Shown here: positions 4,988 through 34,948 of the stretch, piece by piece
Layout: each line of letters starts with the position of its first letter
Position numbering within the stretch: the first letter of the stretch is position 1
From: a virus
DNA length: 41,056 nt
Strand: one strand, 5' to 3'
Virus genome (UHGV): UHGV-1383708
The notes under the pieces: model-generated
What the model was told of the DNA's origin: nothing
The model's input: only the letters and a program-made list of their open reading frames with translations
Database searches by the model: none
Position numbers and translations under genes: made by a program

Positions 4988-5007
4988 TACTGTATAAATA
5001 TACAGTT
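4988..5007. promoter_or_regulatory. LexA (SOS) box
   Basis: TACTGTATAAATATACAGTT, CTGT-N8-ACAG with AT-rich core, close to E. coli consensus. Confidence 0.65.
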
Positions 5008-5027
5008 ATTGCATGGAGAAGATTAAG

Positions 5028-5285
5028 ATGCAGCAGTATCACTATCCACTGGAAGAGGGATTTACCGAAAGGATTCACACGCCGGGAGGCGTCAGGTCAC
5101 TGGTGGAGGGATCGCACTTGATGAAATTACTCCGGGATCTCGATAAGGATGGATTTAATGTCGATGGCCCACTTGCCGAACTGACTGCACTGATTAACTA
5201 CGTCACCAGCTCACAGATGTCTATGCAGGATCTGCAAACACATCTCGACTATTGTGCCGAACAATTACGAAAACAAACCAGATAA
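5028..5285 (+). CDS. Small protein homologous to the antirepressor shared C-terminal domain; candidate SOS-inducible antirepressor
   Basis: 86 aa; GGAGA RBS; GGVRSLVEGSHLMKLLRDLDKDGFNVDGPLAELTAL parallels SGVLGLTENSLLMNLLNQLQEDGHDVSGAAAELTTM; LexA box 20 nt upstream. Confidence 0.55.
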   Translation: MQQYHYPLEEGFTERIHTPGGVRSLVEGSHLMKLLRDLDKDGFNVDGPLAELTALINYVTSSQMSMQDLQTHLDYCAEQLRKQTR

Positions 5286-5316
5286 GTTTTGAAATTACCA
5301 ATAGGAGTGCTTATAT

Positions 5317-5331
5317 TTACCTTTTCGGTAA
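5317..5331. promoter_or_regulatory. Operator palindrome TTACC-TTTTC-GGTAA
   Basis: Perfect palindrome right after TTGAAA-N17-TTATAT promoter-like hexamers; nested in larger inverted repeat AGGAGTGC/GCACTCCT. Confidence 0.6.
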
Positions 5332-5425
5332 ATTTACATTGCACTCCTCTTGTGCCATAGTAATCGGGCACTGGCAAAATCCAGTGCCGGGATTGGTCTC
5401 CCGGATTACTACAGAGGCACATATG

Positions 5426-5598: not shown

Positions 5599-6291
5599 AT
5601 GAATACCAAACCTTCCATCTTTTCCTTTGAGTCATCCTGCCAGATCCGTATGTTCATGATTGACGGAGAACCTTGGTTTGTCACCAAAGATGTGTGCAAT
5701 GCTTTGAATATTGATGTTACACAAGCGAGAAAACTTGATAAAAAAGGCTGGAACAAAAAGGGGCTGTATTCAATACAGACCCCTGGTGGAATACAAGAAC
5801 TATCCATCGTTTCAGAATCAGGTCTCTACATCCTTATTCTGCGTTGCAAAGAGGCAATGACTGAGGGAACGAGAGCATTCAGATTTCTTGAATGGGTTAC
5901 AGGTGAGGTTCTTCCTCAGATCCGCCGCACCGGAAGTTACATTAAAAACTCGCTCCCGCAGGAAGAACGCATAAAGATGGTTGCCGACCAGGTAGCCAAC
6001 GCCACAGCATCAGCAGTGATGCAGGCAATGAAGGTAGAGAACAAAACCTACAGCGCCCCACTGAAGCCCGGCTACCGCAGCCTGATTCATTCGCCGTCTG
6101 GTGTTCTCGGCCTGACGGAGAACTCACTGCTGATGAATCTGCTGAACCAGTTACAGGAAGACGGGCACGATGTATCGGGCGCGGCGGCGGAGCTGACCAC
6201 CATGTTCTGCTACATCGTCGGTGTGAGCAAATGCCTGCGTGATATCCAGACGCACGCGGAGTACATCAACGACAAAGCAGGGTTCTTCTGA
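5599..6291 (+). CDS. Bro-N domain antirepressor with shared C-terminal domain
   Basis: 230 aa; N-terminus IRMFMIDGEPWFVTKDVCNALNI typical of Bro-N; last 77 aa near-identical to antirepressor 7543-8481. Confidence 0.7.
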   Translation: MNTKPSIFSFESSCQIRMFMIDGEPWFVTKDVCNALNIDVTQARKLDKKGWNKKGLYSIQTPGGIQELSIVSESGLYILILRCKEAMTEGTRAFRFLEWVTGEVLPQIRRTGSYIKNSLPQEERIKMVADQVANATASAVMQAMKVENKTYSAPLKPGYRSLIHSPSGVLGLTENSLLMNLLNQLQEDGHDVSGAAAELTTMFCYIVGVSKCLRDIQTHAEYINDKAGFF

Positions 6292-7542: not shown

Positions 7543-8481
7543 TCAGAAGAACCCTGCCTTGTCGTTGATGTATTCCGCGTGCGTCTGGATATCACGCAGG
7601 CATTTGCTCACACCGACGATGTAGCAGAACATGGTGGTCAGCTCCGCCGCCGCGCCCGATACATCGTGCCCGTCTTCCTGTAACTGGTTCAGCAGATTCA
7701 TCAGCAGTGAGTTCTCCGTCAGGCCGAGAACACCAGACGGCGAATGAATCAGGCTACGGTAGCCGGGCTTCAGTGGATAACCATAACATTTTGTCTGTGT
7801 TTTAATTGCCTCACGAAGCGCATCTAACATCTTGACTGCCACTTCATCATTCTCTGATGCAGATCCAGCAGGGAGATACTCCCCTTCAAGCGGAACCCGA
7901 GCAACAAGAGACAACGCTTCGGCAAATTGATCTTCACCAATTTCTTTGTACGAACAGCCAAAATGAGATTTCAGTGACGACCACATGGTGATCATCGCCT
8001 TAGCCTGTTTTTCTTTTGGCAGAGACTGACCGCGACTCATGACGAGTTGTTTAATGGCTTCCTGCTGTTCAGTTGTTATTTTACCCGGCAACGCCTTTTT
8101 AGCTTTGCGTGGGTTAACCACATGGCCTTTAGTCCAGTACTCGTAGAGCACATCGTCACACTCTTCCTGATACTGGATTACCTTGTCGCGGATTTCAGGG
8201 CGGACTTTGTTAGGGCTGATGCTGTTCAACCAAGCTGCCAATTTTCGTAAAGCCATACAAATCATGGCTTGCACCCCACCGGCAGAAGGTATGGTGATTT
8301 CCACCATACCCTTCGAGAAGCGTTGAGAAATCTTCTTATGTTGAGATTTCCAGTCTAGCCCCATTCCCTCAACGATAGGTTTCATTGGGGTATACGGTTC
8401 GCCGTTGTGATTGACAACATAAAGCTCTGCGCCGTGGAATGGCACGTTGATAGTAGATACTGCTGTTGCTATACTCGTCAT
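7543..8481 (-). CDS. Antirepressor (Ant-type N-terminal region plus shared C-terminal domain)
   Basis: 312 aa; downstream of arc-like gene as in P22 immI; last 77 aa near-identical to C-terminus of gene 5599-6291. Confidence 0.7.
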   Translation of the reverse strand: MTSIATAVSTINVPFHGAELYVVNHNGEPYTPMKPIVEGMGLDWKSQHKKISQRFSKGMVEITIPSAGGVQAMICMALRKLAAWLNSISPNKVRPEIRDKVIQYQEECDDVLYEYWTKGHVVNPRKAKKALPGKITTEQQEAIKQLVMSRGQSLPKEKQAKAMITMWSSLKSHFGCSYKEIGEDQFAEALSLVARVPLEGEYLPAGSASENDEVAVKMLDALREAIKTQTKCYGYPLKPGYRSLIHSPSGVLGLTENSLLMNLLNQLQEDGHDVSGAAAELTTMFCYIVGVSKCLRDIQTHAEYINDKAGFF

Positions 8482-27501: not shown

Positions 27502-28094
27502 TGATTACCATCCTGACGTTCTTTGAGTCGCTTCCTGGCTGCCGCTATGCGATCAGCAATTGTCACATTCACATTAACATCCAGGCGTTCTTTGAATGCA
27601 TTGACGTCGACGTGCTTACCAATCAGTTCGAGGTTCTTCACCTTGTCAGGCCATTTAATTTTTTTGAGAATTGTCTCTATCGAATCCTCGTTCATGTTCA
27701 TGATGGTCGATGACAGATCAAAGCCACTAAGCGTAGTGCGCCAGATTTTCGGCCACTCGCGGATTGGCTTAAGGCTCCCATCGTCATTGAGGATATCAAT
27801 CACGTCCATCTGGTCGATCTCCACCAGGCGCATGAGAACGTAATCGGCACTGACGCGCATTCGTTTGTTGCGCTCCTCCATCAACTCGGCAATCCGTTTT
27901 TGAATGCGTTCATCGCGCATCATGACACTGGCTTTAACTGCCGCTGTATTTGGGGAGAATCCTGCGTTAATCGCTGCCTGAGTCTGGTTTTCAGGCGTTT
28001 TGATGTATGACTGGCAATAAGCCTCCTGCATTGCGGTTAGTGGCTTAAATTGCGTTGATTTGCGTTTATAGGTTTTAGGTTCAGCAGGCATCAT
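27498..28094 (-). CDS. Terminase small subunit
   Basis: MQEAYCQSYIKTPENQTQAAINAGFSPNTAAVKASVMMRDERIQKRIAEL typical of Terminase_2-type small subunits; overlaps terL start. Confidence 0.75.
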   Translation of the reverse strand: MMPAEPKTYKRKSTQFKPLTAMQEAYCQSYIKTPENQTQAAINAGFSPNTAAVKASVMMRDERIQKRIAELMEERNKRMRVSADYVLMRLVEIDQMDVIDILNDDGSLKPIREWPKIWRTTLSGFDLSSTIMNMNEDSIETILKKIKWPDKVKNLELIGKHVDVNAFKERLDVNVNVTIADRIAAARKRLKERQDGNQ

Positions 28095-28134
28095 AACCAC
28101 CGTGGTAATAGTTACCGTTGTGGTAATAGTACCA

Positions 28135-28163
28135 TGCAAAATAAAGCCGCCATAGTTGGCGGC
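28135..28163 (-). terminator. Intrinsic terminator upstream of terminase small subunit gene
   Basis: GCCGCC-N6-GGCGGC hairpin followed by UUUAUUUU on minus strand. Confidence 0.55.
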
Positions 28164-28204
28164 AGTATTCAAAACCCATCAAATTCATCATGCATAATCT
28201 ACTC

Positions 28205-28216
28205 GTGACATGTCAC
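28205..28216. repeat. Perfect 12-bp palindrome GTGACATGTCAC (copy 3)
   Basis: Exact; overlaps stop of gene 28213-28560; ~42 nt from minus-strand terminator. Confidence 0.8.
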
Positions 28217-28560
28217 ACTATTAATTTCGTTTCATGCCAGCCTTTAGTCACCCAGCATTGCGAGTCACCATTACACGGGCATGAATTAACGGGAACTCTC
28301 TCGCCGCACTTACCGCAAAGTTTTCTGCTGATCGATTTTATACGCCCGCGCACACGTGCATCATCCTGGCGGATCAGCAGCGCGATGTACTCGGCCATTT
28401 CATAGGGATCGCGACCAGGGCGCCGGGCGGCGCAGTTCCGCGCCAGCATTTCCTGCTCCTGCTTATCCAGCACCAGTTCAATTTTGCGCTCACCGGCGGC
28501 GGACTGCCGAGCGCGCTGCGCGGCTTTGCGTTCTGCGGGGGATTTAGCCACGAATCGCAC
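28213..28560 (-). CDS. Hypothetical basic protein with C-terminal Cys cluster (Zn-ribbon-like)
   Basis: 115 aa; CGKCGERVPVNSCPCNGDSQCW; last gene before the terminase operon. Confidence 0.5.
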   Translation of the reverse strand: MRFVAKSPAERKAAQRARQSAAGERKIELVLDKQEQEMLARNCAARRPGRDPYEMAEYIALLIRQDDARVRGRIKSISRKLCGKCGERVPVNSCPCNGDSQCWVTKGWHETKLIV

Positions 28561-30874: not shown

Positions 30875-31174
30875 TCACATCACCCTGAATCCGTTGCATT
30901 TACGTAAAAAATCGCAGATATAGCCCTTCATTTTTTCATGCCAATCCCGATCATTCCCATTGCACCAACCATCAGGTGGAGTCCAGTTTTCTATCAGAGC
31001 AGCCATTTTCTTTGCTTTCGCCGGAGTAGCTGTTGCGGTATCGCAGTAATGACGAGTGTCAACAAACTTATCCATGCCATCGATATCAAGTACGCAAAAC
31101 CATGTGTGATTCGGCATTTCAACAGATGGTATTTGTTGCCCACGTCGACGTTTATCAATAAGACATACAGTCAT
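30875..31174 (-). CDS. Hypothetical protein (99 aa)
   Basis: ORF with overlapping start/stop to neighbours. Confidence 0.45.
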   Translation of the reverse strand: MTVCLIDKRRRGQQIPSVEMPNHTWFCVLDIDGMDKFVDTRHYCDTATATPAKAKKMAALIENWTPPDGWCNGNDRDWHEKMKGYICDFLRKCNGFRVM

Positions 31175-31716
31175 GGTTCCACCTTCTCTATTTGCTTAAG
31201 ACCGTCTCTCACTGCATTAAGTACGCGTTCCAGATACTGGTATTTCGGGTTTGGTATCGTTGGCCAGTTGGCATACCACGGCTCATCACCAAAGAGATTC
31301 AGTAGTTTGTTACCGACGCCGAAACAGCAGCAGCTTTCTTTTACGTCATCGGCGTTTTCCGCCTCGTACCACATTTCGCGAGCCAGTACGGCGTCGATTT
31401 CTCTCTCTCTTCGTAACTTTATGATTTCTGACTTCACGAAAAGCAGATTTGCATCGTTGTCATCGTCGACCGTGCTTCGCAGTTGAGGGTCGAAATTGTC
31501 GATTAGATAGTCGTTGCTGACTCGCTTAATGAACGTCTGCACATCATCACCGCCCATAGCAAACCAAGCCGCAGTCCACGCTTTTCCGTAGCAGGTGATG
31601 GTGATTCTTCCCTTTCCAGGTTCATAGTTTTCAATCATCACTCGAACCGGATCTAGTCTCTCTGCACCGGTTATAACGAATGACAACACATCAATCTTTT
31701 CAACCGTTACACTCAC
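31171..31716 (-). CDS. Hypothetical protein (181 aa), GTG start
   Basis: AAGGAGG RBS 6 nt before GTG; start overlaps upstream stop. Confidence 0.5.
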   Translation of the reverse strand: MSVTVEKIDVLSFVITGAERLDPVRVMIENYEPGKGRITITCYGKAWTAAWFAMGGDDVQTFIKRVSNDYLIDNFDPQLRSTVDDDNDANLLFVKSEIIKLRREREIDAVLAREMWYEAENADDVKESCCCFGVGNKLLNLFGDEPWYANWPTIPNPKYQYLERVLNAVRDGLKQIEKVEP

Positions 31717-32192
31717 TGGTTGCCTCCTTTGCGAAGCTGTTCCGCACAATGCAGCAGGGCGTCCGTCGCATATTTAAGCCTCACTAGCTCACCATCATCC
31801 ATTCCCGCGAGATTCGCGTGTTTAACGAACGCCGAGCAAAGGTCATTAAACGCCTGCGCACGTACTTCAGCCAGGAAAGCATCGGTGGCTGGAGTTTCGA
31901 TATCGTTAATTTCAGGAAGAATCTCTTCCCATGTAGCGATATCGCCATTCAAATGCCATCCGGCAATTCCACTGGAGTTATCCGCAACACTCCGAACGGC
32001 TTCAATAGTTTCATGCATTGCCGCACTCTCCGCCGCCAGCGCATTAGCACGCACCAGTTGCACTTCCAGTTGCGTTGCCAAATCGCTGATCAGCTTTGCC
32101 ACACTGCGCATATCAACGGCACCACATTCTGCTTTCAGTTCCGAAGCCATCTCATGCCCGGCGGCAACTAACCCTTTGATATTACTTTCCAT
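31713..32192 (-). CDS. Hypothetical protein (159 aa)
   Basis: ORF in leftward operon. Confidence 0.5.
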   Translation of the reverse strand: MESNIKGLVAAGHEMASELKAECGAVDMRSVAKLISDLATQLEVQLVRANALAAESAAMHETIEAVRSVADNSSGIAGWHLNGDIATWEEILPEINDIETPATDAFLAEVRAQAFNDLCSAFVKHANLAGMDDGELVRLKYATDALLHCAEQLRKGGNQ

Positions 32193-32253
32193 CTTTACCC
32201 TCGCTTATCCACATAACTTATTGATTACATTGATAACTAAATAGATCGTCGAT

Positions 32254-32601
32254 TCAGAACTCTTCGATGTTCCAGCCACCACCTGCTTTCTTTGGTTTAA
32301 CCGTTACCCCGATGATTCGGAACGGATACTGATCTGCGGCGACTTTGGTTTTCACTCTGGCGTCATCGGTCCAGAATCCCCCTTTCACTTCGTGCAGCTC
32401 CATCTCGCCGGTGGCGAGCATCACAGCGAAATCGGGCGTATAGAACGTGTTATTAGCTAACCGCAGCTTGATACCCTCGAATCGATACCAGGCGATTTCC
32501 CCTGCACGTTTACGCAGCTCAAGGTGCTGGCAATACGCAGATTCTGTTTTGTTCATCTGGCCTGTTTTGAGTCGACCAAGAGCCTGTATCTGTTTTCTCA
32601 T
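32254..32601 (-). CDS. DUF1064-like phage protein
   Basis: 115 aa; pattern YTPDFAV...ELHEVKG recalled as DUF1064. Confidence 0.5.
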   Translation of the reverse strand: MRKQIQALGRLKTGQMNKTESAYCQHLELRKRAGEIAWYRFEGIKLRLANNTFYTPDFAVMLATGEMELHEVKGGFWTDDARVKTKVAADQYPFRIIGVTVKPKKAGGGWNIEEF

Positions 32602-32604
32602 GAT

Positions 32605-32619
32605 TTACCCCTGAGGTAA
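32605..32619. promoter_or_regulatory. Operator palindrome TTACC-CCTGA-GGTAA abutting start of DUF1064-like gene
   Basis: Perfect palindrome 4 nt from ATG at 32601; putative minus-strand TTGATT-N17-TTTAAT promoter just upstream. Confidence 0.6.
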
Positions 32620-32666
32620 TTAAAAACCACATAAGACACGAAATCAATAGATTTTAGAATATTTTA

Positions 32667-32681
32667 TTACCCAGCAGGTAA
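32667..32681. promoter_or_regulatory. Operator palindrome TTACC-CAGCA-GGTAA
   Basis: Perfect palindrome upstream of putative middle promoter. Confidence 0.6.
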
Positions 32682-32692
32682 TCATCGAGACG

Positions 32693-32714
32693 TAAAAAAA
32701 TGCGCTATCGCGCT
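32693..32714 (-). terminator. Weak intrinsic terminator just after P-like gene
   Basis: Short GCGC-N4-GCGC hairpin followed by U7 on minus strand. Confidence 0.35.
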
Positions 32715-32718
32715 GGTA

Positions 32719-33519
32719 TTACTTGATAAATCCTGCCGCCTTTCCCCGCCTGTATTCCTCCATCAGCCACTGCGCCGGTGTTATTCCCCCCAGGGTGGCG
32801 GCGTTAGGCATACACCCGAAACTTCGCCCTGGTGGATGGTAAACGTCTCTCCCTGTGTCCGGAGGCGTACTCATGGGCTCTGGCTTTGCCTGTATGCTGA
32901 TCACCGGATCGGGTATCTGCTGTCCGGAAGCCACCTTTTTCGCCCAATCATCGAGCAGCCTGCGCGCGTGTTTCTCAACCTCAATCTCGCTAAGCTGGCG
33001 CTGATACATTGCACGGCGGGTATCACATACGACCCAGTACATAACCGGATGTCGCCACGGGAATCTTTCGGGACCACCAGGATATAAACTTTTTTCCTTG
33101 CTGTACCGGTGAAACTCCGCCATCACATCGTCAATGGTGACGCCAAGAACCATCTTGCTGTCTTTACACCACTTGATGAATTGCCCTGGCGACGGCCAGA
33201 ACGGGGACTCACTGGCGCGGGCGTGGCGCATACCAGCAGAAACCTGTTCACGGGTTCGGATCCCCCCTTCGGCAAACGCAGCAATCCACTGCTGTTTTGC
33301 AGCAACTTCCTGCTCTGGCGTCTTCAGGTTGGTTACCACTGCCGCCGGAAACAGTTGTTTCAGCTGTTTAAAAAGGGCATCAACAAGCCTCTCTGCTGAC
33401 ATGTTCACCACATTGTCATTGTTGACGTACTGATGCTCATAACCTGACATGCGAGAAAGGGCTTCTCCGTCACGGTTTTGTATCGCGGTAAAAACGTTGT
33501 TCACAAGAAATCCTCCCAT
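32719..33519 (-). CDS. Replication protein P-like helicase loader
   Basis: EQVSAGMRHARASESPFWPSPGQFIKWCK aligns with lambda P NGITTMEQVNAGMRVARRQNRPFLPSPGQFVAWCRE. Confidence 0.8.
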   Translation of the reverse strand: MGGFLVNNVFTAIQNRDGEALSRMSGYEHQYVNNDNVVNMSAERLVDALFKQLKQLFPAAVVTNLKTPEQEVAAKQQWIAAFAEGGIRTREQVSAGMRHARASESPFWPSPGQFIKWCKDSKMVLGVTIDDVMAEFHRYSKEKSLYPGGPERFPWRHPVMYWVVCDTRRAMYQRQLSEIEVEKHARRLLDDWAKKVASGQQIPDPVISIQAKPEPMSTPPDTGRDVYHPPGRSFGCMPNAATLGGITPAQWLMEEYRRGKAAGFIK

Positions 33520-34316
33520 GCTTCAGGGCTGTTCCAGTGCGGAACGTTGTTATCAGGTAATGTTGATTGCTTCTGTCTGCTAATCTGCAGCCGCCTTGCC
33601 AGCTTCTGCTCCCACTGTGCCTGATGGTATGCCTTACCCTCAGCCATCCAGTAAATTCTGAACTCTGCAAGTTCCTGTGCCGTTGGCAGACTGTCCAGGT
33701 AGATCCCCTGCAATGAGCTTTTCCGAAGAAAGTCATCTGATGGCTGCCATTGTTCATGCATGACAAATTTGCCTAATTGCCCTGGCCCACCAGGAGGAAC
33801 AAAGTTATTCATCACGGCGTTGTTTGCTCCGGGGTCATGAGGCACAGAATCCCCGCTTTTTGTCCTGCTCTCCCTCTCTTGGTTAAATGACTGGTTATAT
33901 GACTGGTTCTGGATCCCGTTTTTGGGATCATTCAACATCCCGTTTTTGGGATCATTCAACATCCCGTTTTTGGGTATATTCCCGTTTTCGGTAACATTAC
34001 CGTTTTCGGGTTCATTGCCCCCCTCCCGGTTGCCTTTAATGTTCCCGTTTTTGGTTATATTAAGAGAGAAAACCCGCACTCTTTTTGTCGCTCCCTTTCT
34101 CTCTCCGGTATCTGAAATAAGCCCCATTTTCATGAGCGATATAAGCCCGGCCTGCACGGTTTTTTTATTCAGGCAAGTGTCTTTAACGAGGCGTTCTATG
34201 CTGGGGTAGCAGAGGTTATATTCATCGGCTCTGTCAGCCATCGAGAGCAGTATGAGCTTTAATGATGAGCTACCTGGATCTGTCTCCCAGGCCCAATCTG
34301 TTGCATGTCTGCTCAT
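33501..34316 (-). CDS. Replication initiator, lambda O-like, with internal iteron-encoded peptide repeats
   Basis: 271 aa; N-terminal HTH-like region; repeated PKNGMLND peptides encoded by DNA iterons; directly upstream of P-like gene. Confidence 0.7.
   Translation of the reverse strand: MSRHATDWAWETDPGSSSLKLILLSMADRADEYNLCYPSIERLVKDTCLNKKTVQAGLISLMKMGLISDTGERKGATKRVRVFSLNITKNGNIKGNREGGNEPENGNVTENGNIPKNGMLNDPKNGMLNDPKNGIQNQSYNQSFNQERESRTKSGDSVPHDPGANNAVMNNFVPPGGPGQLGKFVMHEQWQPSDDFLRKSSLQGIYLDSLPTAQELAEFRIYWMAEGKAYHQAQWEQKLARRLQISRQKQSTLPDNNVPHWNSPEAWEDFL
33911..34060. repeat. Iteron array (candidate origin) inside O-like gene
   Basis: About six copies of CCCGTTTT(T/C)GG at 18-24 bp spacing, including two exact 24-bp tandem units. 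Confidence 0.7.
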
Positions 34317-34331
34317 GATTAATCTCCGCTA

Positions 34332-34532
34332 TCAGCTTGAATGTTGTGGGGAGGAATTAATCATGATCTGCTTAATCTCTGCCCTGATACGACGGTTTGA
34401 TTCCATGGTGCACTCAACACAGTGTCCGTTGTAAACCCAGCGTTCACTGTCATGTCCGTGCTTACATGTTTTTCCGGTGTAGTAGCGTTTAAGTCCGCGC
34501 TTTGCGGCATCAATACGTGTAATGATTTCCAT
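34332..34532 (-). CDS. Small Zn-binding protein (66 aa) in cII-like position
   Basis: C-x-H-x-H ... H-C-x2-C cluster; between cro-like and O-like genes. Confidence 0.45.
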   Translation of the reverse strand: MEIITRIDAAKRGLKRYYTGKTCKHGHDSERWVYNGHCVECTMESNRRIRAEIKQIMINSSPQHSS

Positions 34533-34682
34533 GGTAAGCCCTGTTATTAGTATTGGGATTACGGTCATTTTGTGCTGACACAAAAAAAATATCAACCATA
34601 TTTGGTTTTTTATTACCTTTGAGGTACGAATAGATATGAAAAGACCGCCGGGTGGCGGTCTACAGAGGGTTGTAGCTGGATA

Positions 34683-34913
34683 TCATGAGTAGAAGAAGTA
34701 TGCCAGTTCTGCTTTTGAGCGCAGCCATTGTCTTGTTTTACAGGCTTTAAAAAGCCCATTCATCAATACTTTACCTGGCATTTTGCGCTTACCTGTTAAG
34801 TGAGTCTGGATATAGTGACTCGTCGTTCCGGCTTCCTGTGCGAAGGCTTCACGCTCATCCGGAGTAAGTGCAAGCCAGTGCTTTTTGAAATCGAAATGTC
34901 CGTTATCGCTCAT
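34683..34913 (-). CDS. Cro/YdaS-like small HTH protein
   Basis: 76 aa; first gene of leftward operon; HWLALTPDEREAFAQEAGTTSHYIQTHLTGKRKMP. Confidence 0.55.
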   Translation of the reverse strand: MSDNGHFDFKKHWLALTPDEREAFAQEAGTTSHYIQTHLTGKRKMPGKVLMNGLFKACKTRQWLRSKAELAYFFYS

Positions 34914-34948
34914 AGCTATTGCCTGATATTTATTTCAGATAATAAATA

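Follow-up and report, generated by a model that had tools for sequence, protein, structure and literature searches.

The stretch of DNA that we analysed (UHGV virus genome UHGV-1383708, 41,056 nucleotides; the window) is a complete genome of the phiV10/epsilon15 type (Uetakevirus). Phages of this type are frequent prophages in E. coli O157, Salmonella and other enterobacteria. The proteins that the window shares with phiV10 (NC_007804) are mostly 97-100% identical to their phiV10 counterparts, and the window is essentially a variant of that phage.

The junction described here lies between two blocks of genes. The upstream replication block contains p42, a DnaT-like gene and a P-like gene, whose stop codon (TAA, 32721-32719, read on the minus strand) ends the block. 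The downstream block begins with a gene for a DUF1064 protein and reaches p55. The 117 bp from the P-like gene to the DUF1064 gene contain a weak terminator, followed by a promoter-like pair that is flanked by two operators (Table 1). When we read the minus strand, all of the parts that the original prediction had listed after the P-like gene (terminator, two operators and promoter-like pair) were present, and both operators were exact matches to the motif.

Table 1. Elements of the junction and related elements elsewhere in the window
Feature	Position	Strand	Remarks
P-like replication gene	32719..33519	-	99.6% identity to phiV10 p44, 'putative replication protein p'; ends upstream replication block
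Hairpin GCGC-GATA-GCGC, then A and T7	32694..32713	-	weak intrinsic terminator or pause site; GCGC 32713-32710, loop GATA, GCGC 32705-32702, T7 32700-32694
Operator O1, TTACCTGCTGGGTAA	32667..32681	.	exact motif match; centre ~-62 relative to predicted transcription start
-35-like TTGATT	32642..32647	-	inside conserved ATCTATTGA, a 9-mer common to the PL-type module at the same position
-10-like TTTAAT	32619..32624	-	17 nt past -35; final T is first T of O2
Operator O2, TTACCTCAGGGGTAA	32605..32619	.	exact motif match; spans predicted start (~32612) and ribosome-binding site
Shine-Dalgarno-like AGGGG	32608..32612	-	within O2 spacer, 6 nt ahead of ATG
DUF1064 gene	32254..32601	-	Pfam DUF1064; PHROG 190 'Holliday junction resolvase'; opens downstream block reaching p55
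Paralogous module beside rep	35673..35786	+	strong terminator, O1 35710-35724, TTGACA-17-AATTAT, O2 35772-35786; leads into early-left operon
Second similar junction	34567..34661	-	terminator 34661-34642, one-mismatch operator 34627-34613, TTGATA-17-CAAAAT; precedes replication genes
Three operator-type sites, cro-like/rep gap	34950..35012	.	34950-64, 34981-95, 34998-35012
Two adjoining operator-type sites	28094..28126	.	directly upstream of probable terS ATG, behind terminator
Rep repressor, presumed operator binder	35068..35652	+	SPC32H Rep (PDB 5D50 chain A), E = 4e-42, residues 1-190
Ant antirepressor	5028..5282	+	anti-repressor chain of 5D50 (5D50_E), E = 1.6e-47
p55, small Arg-rich zinc-finger-like regulator	28216-28551		just upstream of a terminator and terS

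Operators, promoter-like pair and terminator hairpin

The two operators are 15-bp palindromes (TTACC-N5-GGTAA) spaced 62 bp, with a 46-nt gap between them. O2 is followed by ATC and then by the ATG at 32601; that is, 3 nt separate the operator from the start codon, and not 4 nt as initially described. The window contains 10 exact copies of TTACC-N5-GGTAA and 8 copies with one mismatch, compared to 0.72 expected; a count this high was not seen in any of 100 shuffles. Copies are present in the gap between the repressor gene and cro and at almost all transcription-unit starts, and operator-type sites were found ahead of late genes. One of the three sites between the cro-like gene and rep (34950-64) is within the spacer of a leftward promoter, TTGTTA-17-TATTAT. 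Based on sequence, O1 and O2 are predicted Rep operators of the Uetakevirus type (epsilon15/phiV10/SPC32H).

The promoter-like pair TTGATT-17-TTTAAT has a consensus score of 9/12, with T in place of A as the second base of the -10. Our promoter scanner skipped this pair because its rule (a spacer of 16-18 nt, and a -10 with A second and T sixth) does not allow that T. Promoter-like hits across the region were at chance level (6 found compared to 6.3 expected), and what supports this candidate promoter is not the match to the consensus but where it lies, how well it is conserved and that it has a paralogue in another module. The predicted start (~32612, minus strand) would give a leader of only ~11 nt. 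We found that the register in which a -10 abuts an operator, its last T doubling as the first T of the operator, with a sigma-70 match of at least 9/12, occurred in 4 of 20 operator orientations (binomial 2e-6 versus local background), and that all four of these promoter-like matches face the adjacent gene.

The hairpin has a stem of 4 bp, all G-C, and is below the threshold of the scanner (5-pair rule). Its folding energy, ~-6.5 to -8.7 kcal/mol, is marginal relative to shuffled sequence. The phiV10 record has a rho-independent terminator (35038-35057) at the orthologous place, directly after the P-like gene, and no operator or promoter annotated there.

We found that the junction and the module beside rep have a common order: terminator, O1, 19 nt, ATCTATTGA (containing the -35), 17 nt, -10, O2. 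The two align without gaps over 80 positions, 52 of which are identical, and their operators have the same 62-bp spacing. Between the operators, 23 of 46 positions are identical, and these identities come from the shared ATCTATTGA (shuffle p = 0.006).

Several other candidate elements were examined and set aside. O2 does not appear to be an RNA hairpin that masks the ribosome-binding site; its folding energy, -4.2 kcal/mol, does not improve on that of shuffled sequence. By eye, AATCAATAGATTT between O1 and O2 is a near-match to an IHF site in the E. coli type of junction, and is not conserved in the epsilon15 type. A plus-strand promoter (AAGACA-16-TAGAAT, 32633-32660) has its -10 in a variable segment and is likewise not conserved in epsilon15-type junctions. 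There was no match to an Rfam family at the junction.

Conservation of the junction in related phages

Neither the half-sites nor the 46-nt gap changed in any of more than 130 natural variants, and the neighbouring bases are hypervariable. In junctions that were retrieved independently of the motif, the core half-sites were intact in 47 of 47 for O1 and 46 of 47 for O2, and the gap between the operators was identical in every junction retrieved. Nucleotide diversity was 0.01 in the half-sites compared to 0.48 in the spacer. The N5 spacer of O1 is hypervariable. That of O2 is partly constrained (TNAGR), purine-rich and conserved across variants, consistent with the presence of the putative Shine-Dalgarno sequence. 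In the segment between the operators, TTGA, the 17-nt spacing and TTWAAT are likewise present in every variant; the -10 in relatives, in the same register, is TTTAAT or TTAAAT. Position 2 is T in nearly all of them, so that the key A at -11 is absent, and this T predicts a promoter that is weak or that needs an activator.

Among 206 distinct modules (pooled), the arms of the hairpin were GCGC in the junction variants with only two single-base exceptions, and the loop varied (GATA, AGTA, GGCA, GGGA, AGCA, GACA and others). Diversity of the terminator loops and of operator bases outside the half-sites was ~20 times as high as at synonymous sites nearby.

On either side of the conserved module, the genes are swapped. 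Upstream is a P-like or a DnaT-like gene, and downstream is a DUF1064 gene or, in some relatives, a RuvC-type gene that starts MAAVLGID. It is very improbable, in our estimate, that this block is mainly a recombination joint (a linker for module exchange) with regulation secondary: the same 117-bp module does occur with at least three kinds of upstream gene ends and two kinds of downstream genes, joined exactly at the stop codon and the ATG, but if the block were no more than a linker, the half-sites, TTGA, the -10 and the exact spacing would not be the only parts preserved amid hypervariable bases, and a role in recombination would be compatible with one in regulation.

The same arrangement is found in epsilon15 (NC_004775), with the same palindrome core (ATTACC-N5-GGTAAT) and the same locations of sites: the rep/cro gap, the early-left promoter, upstream of terS and the head genes, and the junction. 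The epsilon15 module contains the terminator, O1, 46 nt, O2 and ATCATG, and its flanks differ from those of the window in being a DnaT-like gene and a RuvC-like gene. The site orthologous to O1 (35906-35922) is annotated as 'protein_bind: repressor'; only this site is marked at the junction, and neither O2 nor a promoter is. A second repressor site in that record (12-27) is at the place equivalent to the pair upstream of terS in the window. Because the repressor site in the epsilon15 record and the terminator in the phiV10 record are existing annotations in close relatives, we consider the junction real but ordinary. A literature search for the operator motif in Uetakevirus gave nothing useful, and the paper on vB_EcoP_ZX5 has no operator mapping.

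SPC32H also carries the junction. In a Serratia prophage, whose Rep is 55% identical, the top palindrome was again TTACC-N5-GGTAA, at equivalent places. The equivalent junction of the Serratia relative has two adjacent sites 18 bp apart, and therefore the 62-bp geometry is not universal.

Repressor, antirepressor and comparison with other phages

The window encodes homologues of both the repressor and the antirepressor of SPC32H (PDB 5D50). A LexA-box-like sequence, TACTGTATAAATATACAGT, is immediately upstream of the Ant gene. Rep is reported to bind palindromic sites in tetrameric form; the tetramer has two pairs of DNA-binding domains, and each pair is made up of domains from different dimers (PMC9638917). 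The N-terminal recognition region of Rep reads NLVNRW in homologues with as little as 52% identity, and neither the recognition helix nor the operator half-site varied among the homologues examined, which extended to 52-55% protein identity.

We found no Pfam match to a Q- or N-family antiterminator among the 20 non-structural proteins tested, in agreement with the earlier statement that no lambda Q-like antiterminator is recognisable. p55, which was tested as a cryptic Q, had no match in Pfam and no sequence match in the PDB, and its AlphaFold model (pLDDT 61) was too poor for a fold search. Because p55 is just upstream of a terminator and terS, the late genes may involve a step of antitermination or activation.

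The contrast that had been drawn with classic Q antitermination was misplaced. Lambda has tR2 after P, a terminator that N overcomes, and Q acts on the late genes at PR'; the counterpart of the junction is therefore tR2 with N. In lambda, as in the window, a terminator separates the replication genes from genes of the recombination or 'nin' type. Unlike the window, which has a promoter-like element flanked by repressor sites, lambda is not known to have a promoter or operator at this position, and N-modified polymerase reads through.

In phage P1, one repressor, C1, acts at many operators dispersed over the genome and directly gates separate operons. The window is similar in that a single repressor would gate many scattered operons, and not two promoters and a cascade. 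P1 differs from the window in its asymmetric 17-mer operators, a C1 unrelated to Rep, a plasmid prophage and a different antirepressor circuit (Coi, Ant).

The stoperators bound by gp71 of mycobacteriophage L5 are asymmetric, act in an orientation-dependent manner and block elongation. L5 is like the window in having many repressor sites outside the immunity region, some in transcribed DNA. The sites in the window are instead perfect hyphenated palindromes at promoter-like elements and gene starts, and in this they do not fit the L5 type of stoperator. PMC1934351 mentions multiple asymmetric operators.

Possible functions of the junction

The most likely function, judged from sequence, is that of an internal promoter gated directly by Rep. 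That is, the junction is probably one of several terminator-insulated, repressor-gated operon starts in a phiV10-like prophage. We infer that the small GC hairpin and T7 would partly stop transcription of the replication block, and that the DUF1064-to-p55 block would have its own sigma-70-type promoter, the TTGATT-17-TTTAAT pair. In a lysogen, Rep would occupy O1 and O2 (the latter centred at ~+1), and on O2 it would cover the final base of the -10 together with the predicted start and the ribosome-binding site. Because 62 bp is about six helical turns, both operators would be on the same face of the DNA, and a single Rep tetramer could hold them together, thereby locking the promoter. Following DNA damage and inactivation of LexA, the Ant gene would be expressed and Ant would dismantle Rep tetramers. 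The junction promoter would then fire alongside the other Rep-gated promoters, and N-type antitermination would therefore be unneeded to reach the downstream genes.

The core of the original prediction, that the downstream genes are driven from a repressor-controlled internal promoter, has good computational support: the layout copies that of the rep-side module, the register recurs, the half-sites and spacing are invariant, and Rep and Ant are both encoded. As a whole, the interpretation is supported in part. Given the missing A at -11 of the promoter and the weakness of the terminator, read-through from upstream may contribute or even dominate.

Alternatively, the junction could lack a working promoter; transcription of the downstream genes would come from upstream promoters and pass the leaky hairpin, and the operators would be roadblocks or anchors at which Rep halts stray transcription in the lysogen. 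We consider this unlikely. It would fit the missing A, the weak hairpin and the chance frequency of consensus promoter hits in the region, and O2 would then be within transcribed DNA just before a start codon. It does not account for the retention of TTGA, the 17-nt spacer and TTWAAT in every variant, or for the recurrence of the -10-abuts-operator register at three other gene starts. In addition, the junction matches the rep-side module, which must be a promoter because it is behind a strong terminator.

There is also a small chance that the palindromes mainly serve the cro-like protein or p55 in lytic growth (in activation from O1 or in later shut-off) and not Rep. The centre of O1, at ~-62, is the classical position for a class I activator, and the core promoter looks weak. 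The cro-like protein (76 aa) matches PHROG 35, 'transcriptional repressor', p55 is DNA-binding-like, and there are operator-type sites ahead of late genes. Against this, the three copies between rep and the cro-like gene overlap the leftward promoter, as would be expected of repressor operators, and the authors of the epsilon15 record assigned the sites to the repressor. Since proteins of the Cro type usually share the sites of the repressor, such a role would also be compatible with binding by Rep.

Direct control by Rep of a promoter for each block would explain how phages of the epsilon15/phiV10 type could have an early programme without lambda-style antiterminators. The conserved 62-bp pair would also be a simple natural test case for engagement of two sites by the unusual tetrameric Rep of SPC32H. 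As to annotation, the records of phiV10-type genomes lack operators and promoters as features, which the epsilon15 record has in part.

A broader version of direct control by Rep is possible, and we propose it only tentatively. There would be at least five to six short terminator-insulated operons, each gated by the same Rep tetramer, with 62-bp pairs clamped at two paralogous promoters. Each clamped pair would enclose the entire promoter in a very short repression loop, and one antirepressor would free the whole early programme at once, without an antitermination cascade. The operator bases that are not contacted by Rep and the terminator loops would be mutational hot spots, and their diversity could result from hairpin extrusion or from Rep, permanently bound, shielding the DNA from repair.

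The junction downstream of the P-like gene

We found that all of the elements predicted for the 117 bp that separate the P-like replication gene from the DUF1064 gene (the junction) are present on the minus strand: a terminator-like hairpin, two TTACC-N5-GGTAA palindromes (O1 and O2, candidate operators for the predicted repressor, Rep), and TTGATT-N17-TTTAAT. One distance had to be corrected; O2 is separated from the ATG by 3 nt, not 4 nt. The Shine-Dalgarno AGGGG is within the O2 span. Two of these parts, the terminator and O1, carry annotations in the closest reference genomes. The phiV10 record has a terminator right after the P-like gene, and the epsilon15 GenBank record has seven sites labelled 'protein_bind: repressor', one of which (35906-35922) is O1 of the orthologous junction. 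Direct repression of several operons by one repressor is itself an established arrangement.

Features of the junction and related sites in the window
Feature	Position	Strand	Remark
P-like replication gene	32719-33519	minus
Its stop codon, TAA	32721-32719	minus
Hairpin GCGC-GATA-GCGC	32713-32702	minus	then A and T7 to 32694
O1 TTACCTGCTGGGTAA	32681-32667		12 nt after T7
-35-like TTGATT	32647-32642	minus	19 nt after O1
-10-like TTTAAT	32624-32619	minus	17 nt after TTGATT
O2 TTACCTCAGGGGTAA	32619-32605		first base is last T of TTTAAT
DUF1064 gene	32254-32601	minus	ATC, then ATG at 32601; Pfam DUF1064, PHROG 190
Early-left module	35673-35786	plus	terminator, O1, 19 nt, ATCTATTGACA, 17 nt, AATTAT, O2
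Exact motif sites	4936, 5317, 6377, 24947, 28112, 32605, 32667, 34998, 35710, 35772
Candidate promoters in fixed register	5317+, 35772+, 6377+, 32605-		TTGAAA-17-TATATT (5317+); TTGACA-17-AATTAT (35772+); junction (32605-)
Single site	4936		near tail-fibre/Ant divergent region
Single site	5317		before Bro-type gene
Single site	6377		before gene of unknown type
Single site	24947		upstream of head genes
Sites between cro-like and repressor genes	34950-64, 34981-95, 34998-35012
Strong terminator between cro-like and replication genes	34661-34642	minus
One-mismatch operator GTACCTCAAAGGTAA	34627-34613	minus	after the cro-like gene's terminator
DUF2335 membrane protein	6666-7214		extra relative to phiV10
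P22_AR_N antirepressor-type gene	7543-8481		extra relative to phiV10

Taken alone, the hairpin and the promoter are each weak. The hairpin has four base pairs (-6.5 to -8.7 kcal/mol; z-scores of -0.5 to -2.1 by folding against shuffles) and is below the terminator scanner's rule. TTGATT-17-TTTAAT scores 9/12, but position 2 of its -10, a critical one, is T, and promoter-like matches across 31500-36500 are no more frequent than chance predicts (6 observed, 6.3 expected). The weak -10 and the weak hairpin would suit a junction that has no promoter, with only read-through and Rep roadblocks. We consider this unlikely based on the paralogy with a second module, a recurrent promoter register, and conservation. 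The feature itself is real, and the original prediction of an internal promoter under direct repressor control appears to be largely right.

Paralogy, register, and conservation

The early-left module, beside the repressor gene, is the paralogue of the junction. Its terminator is strong (-16 kcal/mol by folding), and the last T of its AATTAT is the first base of O2. From O1 to O2 the two modules align without gaps (52 of 80 positions identical), and their 46-nt inter-operator segments have 23 matches (shuffle p = 0.006), concentrated on ATCTATTGA. With a strong terminator in front of it and the recombination operon behind it, the early-left module has to include a promoter. It is therefore very probable that the junction holds one too.

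We took the 10 exact operators, each read both ways, and scored sigma-70 matches with the last -10 base fixed on the first operator T. Four of these 20 orientations scored at least 9/12 (binomial 2e-6 against a local background of p = 0.0047 per position), and all four face the adjacent gene. Within the window, this recurrent register is the best argument for a genuine promoter at TTGATT-17-TTTAAT, poor though the -11 base is.

TTACC-N5-GGTAA is found in 10 exact and 8 one-mismatch copies (0.72 expected; no shuffle as high), and in their sequence context the exact sites mark almost every transcription-unit start. Site 34950-64 is inside the spacer of a leftward promoter, TTGTTA-17-TATTAT; an operator pair brackets the promoter 3' of the repressor gene; and TTGATA-17-CAAAAT follows GTACCTCAAAGGTAA, ahead of the replication genes. 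It seems improbable that the cro-like protein or p55, a small regulator-like protein, is the main binder at the junction, and such binding would be compatible with that of Rep. Together with the strong terminator at 34661-34642, GTACCTCAAAGGTAA and TTGATA-17-CAAAAT make up a second terminator-operator-promoter junction (34567-34661, minus strand), located between the cro-like gene and the replication genes. Separately, an 8-bp inverted repeat, AGGAGTGC...GCACTCCT (within 5290-5345), has operator 5317-5331 in its loop; this operator abuts the near-consensus TTGAAA-17-TATATT, directed at the Bro-N gene.

Every one of the more than 120 loci returned by a motif-based scan of viral contigs, which permitted 40-48 nt between operators, has a gap of 46 nt. 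A second scan, anchored only on the T-run and TTGA...TGG, found 47 distinct junctions that the first had not returned; O1 was intact in all 47 and O2 in 46. In the pooled set of 206 distinct modules of both types, junction-type modules have TTGATT, TTGAAA or TTGAAT as the -35 and TTTAAT or TTAAAT as the -10, and early-left-type modules have TTGACA and AATTAT. The hairpin arms of junction-type modules are GCGC/GCGC, with two single-base exceptions and a variable loop. In relatives, the gene ending upstream is P-like, DnaT-like or other, the downstream gene encodes DUF1064 (MRKQ.../MKRQ...) or a RuvC-type resolvase (MAAVLGID...), and the breakpoints are the stop codon and the ATG. The module is very unlikely to serve mainly as a recombination joint; such a role would be compatible with regulation but does not explain the conservation of functional positions only.

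The same module is present in epsilon15 and SPC32H. In a Serratia prophage (L176) with a 55%-identical repressor, TTACC-N5-GGTAA is the commonest palindrome (7 copies versus 2 for the next), with copies at equivalent places. In contrast, its two adjacent operators at the junction after the replication genes are 18 bp apart and its early-left pair 75 bp apart (L176 7721-7753, 10923-11012), indicating that the 62-bp spacing is specific to the E. coli/Salmonella lineage.

Repressor, antirepressor, and late genes

Directly upstream of the gene for an 85-aa protein (5028-5282) is TACTGTATAAATATACAGT (in window 5000-5282), which we take to be LexA-box-like. The 85-aa protein matches the SPC32H antirepressor chain, Ant (PDB 5D50_E, E = 1.6e-47), and a 194-aa protein (35068-35652) matches SPC32H Rep (PDB 5D50, E = 4e-42). 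Based on the LexA-box-like sequence and the Ant match, induction is probably via antirepression and not repressor cleavage. SPC32H Rep is a tetramer on palindromic sites, with pairs of DNA-binding domains coming from different dimers, and Ant breaks this tetramer (PMC9638917). The N-terminal recognition region of Rep, NLVNRW, is invariant among homologues down to 52% identity, which fits the invariant half-site; since both are fixed, a co-variation comparison is ruled out.

We propose that in a lysogen Rep would occupy O1 (about -62) and O2 (about +1), at O2 covering the -10 end, the start site, and AGGGG. One tetramer could hold both, as 62 bp is approximately six helical turns. Upon SOS induction, Ant would remove Rep, and the junction promoter would become active at the same time as its Rep-gated counterparts elsewhere in the genome. 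The weak upstream hairpin would uncouple the downstream block from the replication operon.

The statement that no Q-like antiterminator is recognisable holds at the Pfam level: there is no Q or N family among 20 non-structural proteins. The contrast drawn with Q was misplaced, as the lambda element at the equivalent position is tR2, which is overcome by N. Lambda Q acts on late genes. A candidate late regulator here is p55 (112 aa, 28216-28551, minus strand), which has an Arg-rich N-terminus (AERKAAQRARQ), a Cys-rich C-terminus, and no Pfam or PDB sequence match. Judged by sequence, a segment of p55 is possibly a ribbon-helix-helix; the structure model of p55, of poor quality, has helices only. 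In the stretch 28090-28551, p55, the last gene of the downstream block, leads into a terminator, a pair of operator-type sites (18 bp apart), and the probable terS start. The true terS ATG is probably near 28092; the TTG start that follows from the phiV10 annotation is farther upstream. The two sites, after the terminator, directly precede this ATG. A -10-like TACTAT without a -35 abuts the operator there, which suggests an activator-dependent late promoter.

Variable spacers and genome layout

Among 105 near-identical E. coli-type junctions, nucleotide diversity was 0.48 in the O1 spacer, 0.29 in the 9 nt immediately preceding O1, and 0.24 in the O2 spacer, compared to 0.06 in the inter-operator 46 nt, 0.01 in the O1 half-sites, and 0.018 and 0.064 in upstream and downstream coding DNA. 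Some 100 sequences hold over 30 distinct O1 spacers. The early-left module has a similar pattern, with the terminator loop variable too. The hypervariable segments (32662-32692 and 35696-35724) comprise operator spacers, the 6-9 nt before O1, and terminator loops, as seen over ~186 related loci (105 junction, 81 early-left) among those retrieved (L003-L175). Diversity there is 0.3-0.5, compared to ~0.02 in flanking coding DNA and 0.01 in the half-sites. Spacer diversity exceeds that expected from relaxed constraint, suggesting that these positions either mutate at a locally raised rate or are under diversifying selection for operator strength.

Judged from sequence matches, the window holds an entire phiV10/epsilon15-like (Uetakevirus) genome, reversed in orientation. 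phiV10-type phages match 31000-35500 at 97-99.5% identity by DNA search, and most proteins shared with phiV10 are 97-100% identical when mapped onto the window. At 40990-41020, beside the integrase gene and near the right end, the window has a sequence reverse-complementary to the attP core published in PMC9782041, attgagtgggaatgatt; the window therefore seems to have been cut at the attachment site or close to it. Two inverted copies of segments resembling phiV10 p22, p24 and Bro (6049-6288 and 7546-7848) flank extra genes absent from phiV10.
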